Source: Lama guanicoe (Eukaryota). Taken from it: a stretch of DNA of 60,000 nt. This document shows, piece by piece, positions 49,766-50,219 of this stretch. Position 1 is the first letter of the stretch. Every line of letters starts with the position of its first letter. Position numbers and translations under genes: made by a program. The notes beneath the pieces are model-generated. The model was not told the origin of the DNA. It saw nothing but the letters and a program-made list of their open reading frames with translations, and made no database searches. The DNA lies in NCBI GenBank assembly GCA_013239625.1, contig MU053504.1, positions 1,614,001 to 1,674,000 of the forward strand. The letters are read 5' to 3'.

Positions 49766-49944
49766 TCAGTAGACGCCGGGCTGGGCGGGCTCCGCGGGCT
49801 CCGGCGCCCCCGCCAGCTGCACCAGCCGTAGCAGCAAGGCCCCGGTCGGCCCGTCCAGCAGGGTCCCGTTGCTCCGGTCGCTGGCGCGGGCACGGCGGGG
49901 GAAGCCGGCGCCCTCCCGGCACTCGGGCTCCGTCATGCAGCTCT
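49766..49944 (-). CDS. AVP: Vasopressin-neurophysin 2-copeptin exon 3 (neurophysin C-terminus and 39-aa copeptin)
   Basis: cgcag|AG AGC..TAC TGA; (E)[59 protein letters not shown]-glycosylation sequon NGT intact. Confidence 0.95.
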
Positions 49945-50054
49945 CTGCGGGGAGCAGGGGCTGAGCGCGCGGCGCCGGGGCGCAACTCGGGGGGTCCCGG
50001 CCTCCCGGCCCCGGCCCGGTCCCAGCTCCGCCCGCCCGCCCGCCCCGCCCGCAC

Positions 50055-50219
50055 CCCGCTCCCGCACGGCTTCTGGCCGGACTGGCAGGGCGACGGCAGG
50101 TAGTTCTCCTCCTGGCAGCGCAGCGCCTCGGCCGTGCCCACGAAGCAGCCCAGCTCGTCCGCGCAGCAGATGCTGGGCCCGAAGCAGCGGCCTTTGCCCC
50201 CGGGGCCGCAGGGGAGGCA
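50055..50219 (-). CDS. AVP: AVP exon 2 (neurophysin II core), 165 bp as assembled, 37 bp shorter than canonical and out of phase with exon 3
   Basis: gccag|TGC CTC..AGC GGG|gtgcgg; [55 protein letters not shown] then intron; the [12 protein letters not shown] segment seen in OXT exon 2 is absent. Confidence 0.85.

Follow-up and report, generated by a model that had tools for sequence, protein, structure and literature searches.

The window, a 60,000-nt stretch of the Lama guanicoe assembly, carries OXT on the plus strand and the vasopressin gene, AVP, on the minus strand. The two genes lie tail to tail about 8 kb apart, which is their normal orthologous arrangement, and the coordinates of their features are collected in Table 1. 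The nonapeptide CYFQNCPRG, followed by GKR, is present in AVP exon 1 (translation of 51635-51516). A Pfam scan matched PF00220 to residues 20 to 28 of the exon 1 product (E = 2e-5, above the cut-off of that profile), and a protein search found this product to be 93 to 98% identical to mammalian AVP precursors. The gene as assembled also has its copeptin-coding exon 3 with a stop codon and a poly(A) signal, and the 58-residue exon 3 product was 90 to 91% identical to AVP of artiodactyls and cetaceans in a protein search. Within the intergenic region of about 8 kb, an AT-rich block at 45500-47500 (31 to 37% G+C) is flanked by two islands of more than 70% G+C and may represent an interspersed repeat. 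Some 330 nt beyond the AVP poly(A) signal, at 49380-49440 on the minus strand, there is a (GA)n microsatellite and then a series of (GAGC)-like repeats. None of the 13 long open reading frames (ORFs) scanned elsewhere in the window gave a Pfam match.

Table 1. Features of the AVP and OXT genes in the window, in window coordinates
Feature	Position	Strand	Remarks
AVP exon 1, coding part	51635-51516	-	40 codons: signal peptide, hormone, first 9 residues of neurophysin II
AVP exon 1 donor gt	51515-51514	-	Read from the sequence
AVP intron 1	50220..51515	-	1296 nt; last 69 nt inside the OXT-identical tract
AVP exon 2 acceptor AG	50221-50220	-	Read from the sequence
AVP exon 2	50219-50055	-	165 nt, 75% G+C; encodes neurophysin II residues 10-64
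AVP exon 2 donor gt	50054-50053	-	Directly after ..AAG CCG TGC GGG AGC GGG (..KPCGSG)
Junction of the 37-nt gap	50054..50055	-	Relative to the dromedary AVP gene and OXT exon 2
AVP intron 2	50054-49945	-	110 nt, 87% G+C, gtgcgg...ccgcag
AVP exon 3, coding part	49766..49944	-	Last two bases of the Glu77 codon, copeptin; TGA at 49768-49766
Alternative AVP exon 3 acceptor AG	49944-49943	-	Exon 3 would start at 49942
AVP polyadenylation signal AATAAA	49721..49726	-	Read from the sequence
OXT gene	40813..41530	+	ATG at 40813, TGA at 41528-41530; 125-aa precursor intact
OXT exon 1 CDS	40813-40932	+	Comparator gene
OXT intron 1		+	246 nt; length as in non-dromedary camelids
OXT exon 2	41179-41380	+	202 nt
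OXT intron 2	41381-41474	+	94 nt
OXT exon 3	From 41475, TGA at 41528-41530	+
OXT side of the AVP/OXT tract	41110..41344	+	235 nt, 100% identical to AVP 50288-50054, gapless

AVP exon 2 as assembled is 165 nt long, against 202 nt for OXT exon 2, and the two sequences are identical up to the gap. Measured against 166-residue precursors (for example P0008), the 37 nt that are absent code for neurophysin II Gly65 to Asp76 and the first base of the Glu codon, and Cys67, Cys73, and Cys74 are missing from the assembled AVP. A sequence-only reading of this DNA had described a 165-nt exon that ends in ..KPCGSG before gtgcgg, shorter than its 202-nt OXT counterpart, and had named the same missing residues, cysteines, and single base; the coordinates bear out the former and the full-length precursors the latter. 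The PF00184 profile spans its positions 3 to 56 of 79 on the AVP exon 2 product and 3 to 69 of 79 on that of OXT, and AVP as assembled does not encode a complete 14-cysteine neurophysin domain. Splicing to the normal acceptor (exon 3 from 49944) yields ..KPCGSGRAA*, while an exon 3 start at 49942 keeps the frame to the normal stop and leaves a 13-residue internal deletion; translation gave both outcomes just as the sequence-only reading had predicted them.

We looked for signs of a filled gap or of another copy of the gene. The window is without any N, as are six 10-kb samples taken up to about 60 kb on either side of it on its 2.46-Mb contig, so the junction is unlike a filled gap. A search of the whole assembly found no second AVP copy and returned only AVP itself, the OXT tract, and a weak 62-nt match. 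A pattern search of the assembly for the intact end of exon 2, run without a positive control, gave 0 matches at up to 2 mismatches, a result that an artefact and a real deletion predict alike. The weak match (locus L003, G000:C2616:2977240-2980304; 82% identity) is to the G+C-rich start of AVP intron 2 and adjoins 453 consecutive N on a different contig; chance similarity between simple GC-rich sequences is its most likely cause.

The gap lies at the end of an unusually close match between the two genes. The 235-nt identical tract is made up of 69 nt of intron 1 and then exon 2, it sits within a wider match of 96% that extends over OXT 40985-41344, and AVP and OXT diverge exactly at the gap junction. 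OXT in the window has the South American state at all nine of the placeable diagnostic sites that separate Old World from South American camelids (PMC5880406), including Leu27 TTG, Ala60, and Asp61 GAC. The earlier guess of a probable camelid is thereby upheld by OXT, which is South American at 9 diagnostic sites. OXT Ala60 corresponds to neurophysin residue 29, and the window's AVP and OXT both carry this Ala29 codon (GCG). The codon is described as typical of South American camelid OXT in PMC5880406, and the dromedary references have Gly at neurophysin residue 29 in both AVP and OXT. The presence of Ala29 in both of the window's genes fits ongoing gene conversion between them, and judged from the sequences, the tract looks like the product of concerted evolution, with gene conversion acting once the camelid tribes had separated. 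OXT intron 2 is given as 93 nt in llama and alpaca and 94 nt in the Bactrian camel in PMC5880406, and the 94 nt in the window may reflect either natural variation, such as that of a species outside the paper's sampling, or a 1-nt consensus error in a G/C run. We considered a repeat-mediated origin of the gap and rejected it: microhomology at the edges of the gap amounts to just 1 nt, and neither of the two GTGCGGG motifs close by has been lost.

We used the dromedary gene as an independently determined comparator. According to PMC9508118, dromedary AVP was cloned by PCR from genomic DNA with GC buffer and Sanger sequenced (GenBank OM963135). Our reference was the spliced AVP sequence in Supplementary Data S5b of that paper, of which 400 of the 471 characters were compared by eye; the statements that follow on dromedary AVP hold for that portion. 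Dromedary AVP has a 37-nt block, coding for 12 residues plus G, between ..GGGAGCGGG and the start of exon 3, and its exon 2 is the full 202 nt. With the exception of this block, the window and the dromedary gene are collinear over three exons, and both have the identical exon 3 start with a camelid-typical Met (SCMTEPEC). The dromedary gene differs from the window's in that the 37 nt are present and that neurophysin residue 29 is Gly, not Ala. Four of the 363 shared bases differ, with the 37-nt block excluded, and three of these differences are synonymous: two in exon 1 and one in exon 3. The fourth is Gly29Ala in exon 2, a change that the window's AVP has in common with its OXT. The genomic AVP primers of PMC9508118 fit the window with 0 mismatches at 51612-51588 and 49815-49839. 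They span 1798 bp here, against 1900 bp stated for the dromedary amplicon, but the difference is uninformative, as introns may vary in length and 1900 bp may be a round figure. On these sequences, AVP is under purifying selection since the split of the two camelid tribes, and the gap, if real, must therefore be recent. The sequence-only reading had held that this is not an old pseudogene, and the 4 of 363 differences, 3 of them synonymous, show the same. Among the sources consulted, the dromedary is the closest independently sequenced relative, and its AVP is intact; since it comes from the other camelid tribe, the comparison is an indirect one.

We found no independent AVP sequence from a South American camelid in protein searches, metagenome scans, or the literature covered. 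The protein searches, with the exon 3 product, the exon 1 product, and the exon 3-frame ORF through intron 2 as queries, returned no camelid sequence and no match above 92% (exon 3) or 98% (exon 1). The protein collection shows one representative per 90% cluster, and camelid AVPs may be hidden there; no camelid was among the cluster members listed, which for the two large clusters were 15 of 56 and 15 of 40. Metagenome scans for host contigs with an exact 30-nt exon 3 pattern and with protein patterns gave 0 matches. In a search of sequencing runs (Logan contigs), the best share of the stretch's words was 0.34, and no run reached half or more, a result that favors neither an artefact nor a real deletion. 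The PMC9144646 supplement gives assembly identifiers only, without AVP sequences. In the supplements of PMC5913714, two of the three occurrences of Vicugna pacos in the alignment file were viewed and both lie outside the AVP alignment, the AVP columns of Table S3 hold dashes for Vicugna pacos, and the columns of Table S1 are ambiguous for that species.

To place the gap among other mammals, we surveyed proteins and gene models at the same spot. The sample comprised all 137 proteins returned by the AVP searches and cluster listings, a convenience sample that includes OXT precursors and PDB chains. Ninety-nine of the 137 retained at least 40 of the 55 residues of the window's exon 2 part and were included, and the 13-residue segment was counted as present at 8 or more identities out of 13. 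By this measure, the segment is present in 88 of 99 proteins, and a clean internal deletion with copeptin retained occurs in 0 of 99. Among the 11 proteins that lack it, 2 have a divergent segment that is nonetheless present (slow loris and a hamster OXT-like protein), 1 is a rat frameshift form, and 8 are broken models or fragments that stop or lose frame here. These eight include gorilla, Iberian lynx, ground squirrel, flying fox, elephant seal, tarsier, a leaf-nosed bat, and one further model. Such a share of broken models (8 of 99) marks the spot as a recurrent failure point in assemblies and annotation. In the aberrant AVP models of gorilla (G3RSG3), Iberian lynx, and flying fox, the break falls, as it does in the window, toward the 3' end of exon 2, after ..CQSG.. 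and before ..CCND, and G3RSG3 has intron-derived residues in place of the segment. Unlike the window, with its clean 37-nt gap, the aberrant models are mostly truncations or read-throughs, and none of them has a gap of that kind.

Two further groups of sequences came out of the same searches. The read-through ORFs P0003, P0004, P0010, P0019, P0025, and P0066, which derive from genomic contigs of other mammals, all have ..GRCAA.G.CCND before intron 2, and the residues after CCND are GA in P0003, P0019, and P0025, GE in P0004, and GK in P0010 and P0066. The GA that follows CCND in about three to four of these six agrees with gtgcgg as the true start of intron 2. P0040, a 132-residue UniParc/MetaClust entry, is a camelid-like AVP model 98% identical to the window's exon 1 product. 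It runs from exon 1 through translated fragments of intron 1 into the final 34 copeptin residues, with exon 2 skipped, which suggests that another camelid assembly or annotation also failed at the AVP locus. AVP is entered as "NOT AVAILABLE" for three Camelus species in Table S1 of PMC5913714.

The gap is present in the assembly, exon 2 is intact in a close relative, and conservation extends over the rest of the gene. One explanation of these observations is a real, recent germline deletion of 37 bp, heterozygous or homozygous, in the sequenced animal. The sequence here is unambiguous and contiguous with no N, and the gene is undamaged in exon 1, exon 3, the stop codon, and the poly(A) signal, as it would be in a young allele. 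That the rat frameshift form departs from the normal sequence at these Gly codons too shows that this stretch can mutate in nature. Such an allele would give a 98-residue precursor in which vasopressin is followed by a shortened neurophysin that keeps 8 of 14 cysteines, and copeptin is absent; by analogy with the Cys98stop and Brattleboro precursors, it would be expected to misfold in the endoplasmic reticulum. Against this stand the dromedary and all the other mammals examined, which are intact, and the failures of assembly or annotation at this spot, which are far commoner (8 of 99 proteins). The prior is also very low, since truncations of this type are dominant and progressive in people and mice (PMC3973212), and a healthy reference animal is unlikely to carry a gap whose 98-residue product so nearly equals that of the dominant Cys98stop allele. 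On balance, we consider a real deletion in this animal improbable. The headline of the sequence-only reading, a Brattleboro-like real allele, gained no positive support, and we would give it little chance of being correct.

Two other readings accept the assembled exon as it stands. In one, the short 165-nt form of exon 2 has reached fixation in South American camelids, and the frame is rescued by splicing to the AG that lies two bases further on, with exon 3 from 49942. The arithmetic works, with the frame open through copeptin, and the protein searches found no South American camelid AVP to contradict it. The product would have lost Cys67, Cys73, and Cys74 and would be left with an odd number of cysteines (11), whereas the neurophysin domain is built on seven disulfides. 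To our knowledge, tandem acceptors do not usually have their second AG only 2 nt behind the first. No such form occurs among the 99 proteins, the rest of the gene is under ordinary purifying selection relative to the dromedary with no signs of compensation, and the window's OXT keeps the segment, with the conversion tract ending exactly at the gap; we judge this reading very improbable. In the other, the AVP seen here would be a damaged second copy, with the functional gene located elsewhere or missing from the assembly. Nothing speaks positively for it, although an assembly of 55,231 contigs (2.05 Gb) may be incomplete. The search of the whole assembly returned nothing beyond AVP itself, the OXT tract, and the weak 62-nt match, the copy stands tail to tail with OXT about 8 kb off as an ortholog should, and its other exons are conserved relative to the dromedary. 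A damaged duplicate is, in our view, hardly credible.

We conclude that the 37-nt gap in AVP is very probably an assembly or consensus error and not a feature of the animal's gene. Four lines of evidence favor an artefact: the dromedary gene is intact, the window's gene is otherwise conserved, the site combines extreme G+C with an exact duplicate, and failures recur there. The sequence-only reading had leaned, with a hedge, toward a consensus error, and that preference is strengthened by the dromedary gene with its 37 nt, by the intact state of other mammals, and by the frequency with which models break at this point. Some features of the gap argue the other way. It is clean, has perfect flanks, and ends at the exon-intron border in a contiguous region, and a clean gap at an exon border is not how a random consensus error usually looks.

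As for how an artefact would have arisen, the gap site is the 3' edge of the 235-nt tract identical in AVP and OXT, G+C is 75% in exon 2 and 87% in intron 2, and sequence of this kind receives poor read coverage and ambiguous read placement. PMC8081667 describes GC-rich sequence as commonly lost from short-read assemblies. Possibly, contig ends were merged spuriously where a collapsed AVP/OXT repeat is left and coverage would have been low. We infer both this route and the absence of the gap from the animal's DNA; the true gene would then be expected to have a 202-nt exon 2 and to encode the normal 166-residue vasopressin-neurophysin II-copeptin precursor.

As an artefact, the gap is a warning against calling a loss of AVP, or an "adaptive" change in it, in camelids from draft assemblies. 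With its extreme G+C and its exact AVP/OXT duplicate, the AVP locus fails repeatedly in mammalian assemblies and annotations, and anyone comparing AVP across species should verify how exon 2 ends on its 3' side with reads or Sanger data. If the gap were real, it would be the first natural truncation of the vasopressin precursor in a large mammal, in a family known for its water economy, and would bear on the physiology of water balance and on models of diabetes insipidus. The hormone would be produced together with a neurophysin unable to fold, which would make the animal or its herd a naturally occurring model of central diabetes insipidus. Though we think it a long shot, the allele would then stand beside the Cys98stop and Brattleboro vasopressin mutations as their spontaneous equivalent in a large animal.

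A close known parallel to the predicted product is the Cys98stop mutation (neurophysin Cys67stop), which causes familial neurohypophysial diabetes insipidus and has been introduced into a knock-in mouse (PMC3973212, for this and for the mouse phenotype). The Cys98stop precursor is trapped in the endoplasmic reticulum, and heterozygous mice develop dominant, progressive diabetes insipidus. The window's predicted 98-residue product ends just before neurophysin Cys67 and is practically the Cys98stop truncation. The two differ in standing, as Cys98stop is a proven point mutation with a phenotype and the window's allele is a putative one read from an assembly.

The Brattleboro rat offers a second comparison. 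A rat "vasopressin precursor" of 187 residues, P0080, matches the normal rat precursor exactly over 98 residues, as far as ..KPCGS, before departing from it; from its sequence, it is consistent with the Brattleboro form, in which a single base is deleted from exon 2 of Avp (Schmale and Richter 1984, as cited in PMC3973212 and PMC6546688). The likeness to the Brattleboro rat drawn in the sequence-only reading is apt in this respect, as P0080 leaves the normal rat precursor after ..KPCGS, in the same Gly stretch. In the window, as in the Brattleboro rat, the frame is lost in that Gly-coding stretch with the hormone part intact, and the C terminus of neurophysin and copeptin are lost. The Brattleboro mutation is a 1-nt deletion that removes the stop codon, adds a long aberrant tail, and is recessive (PMC3973212), whereas the window's AVP lacks 37 nt and reaches a stop 3 codons later.
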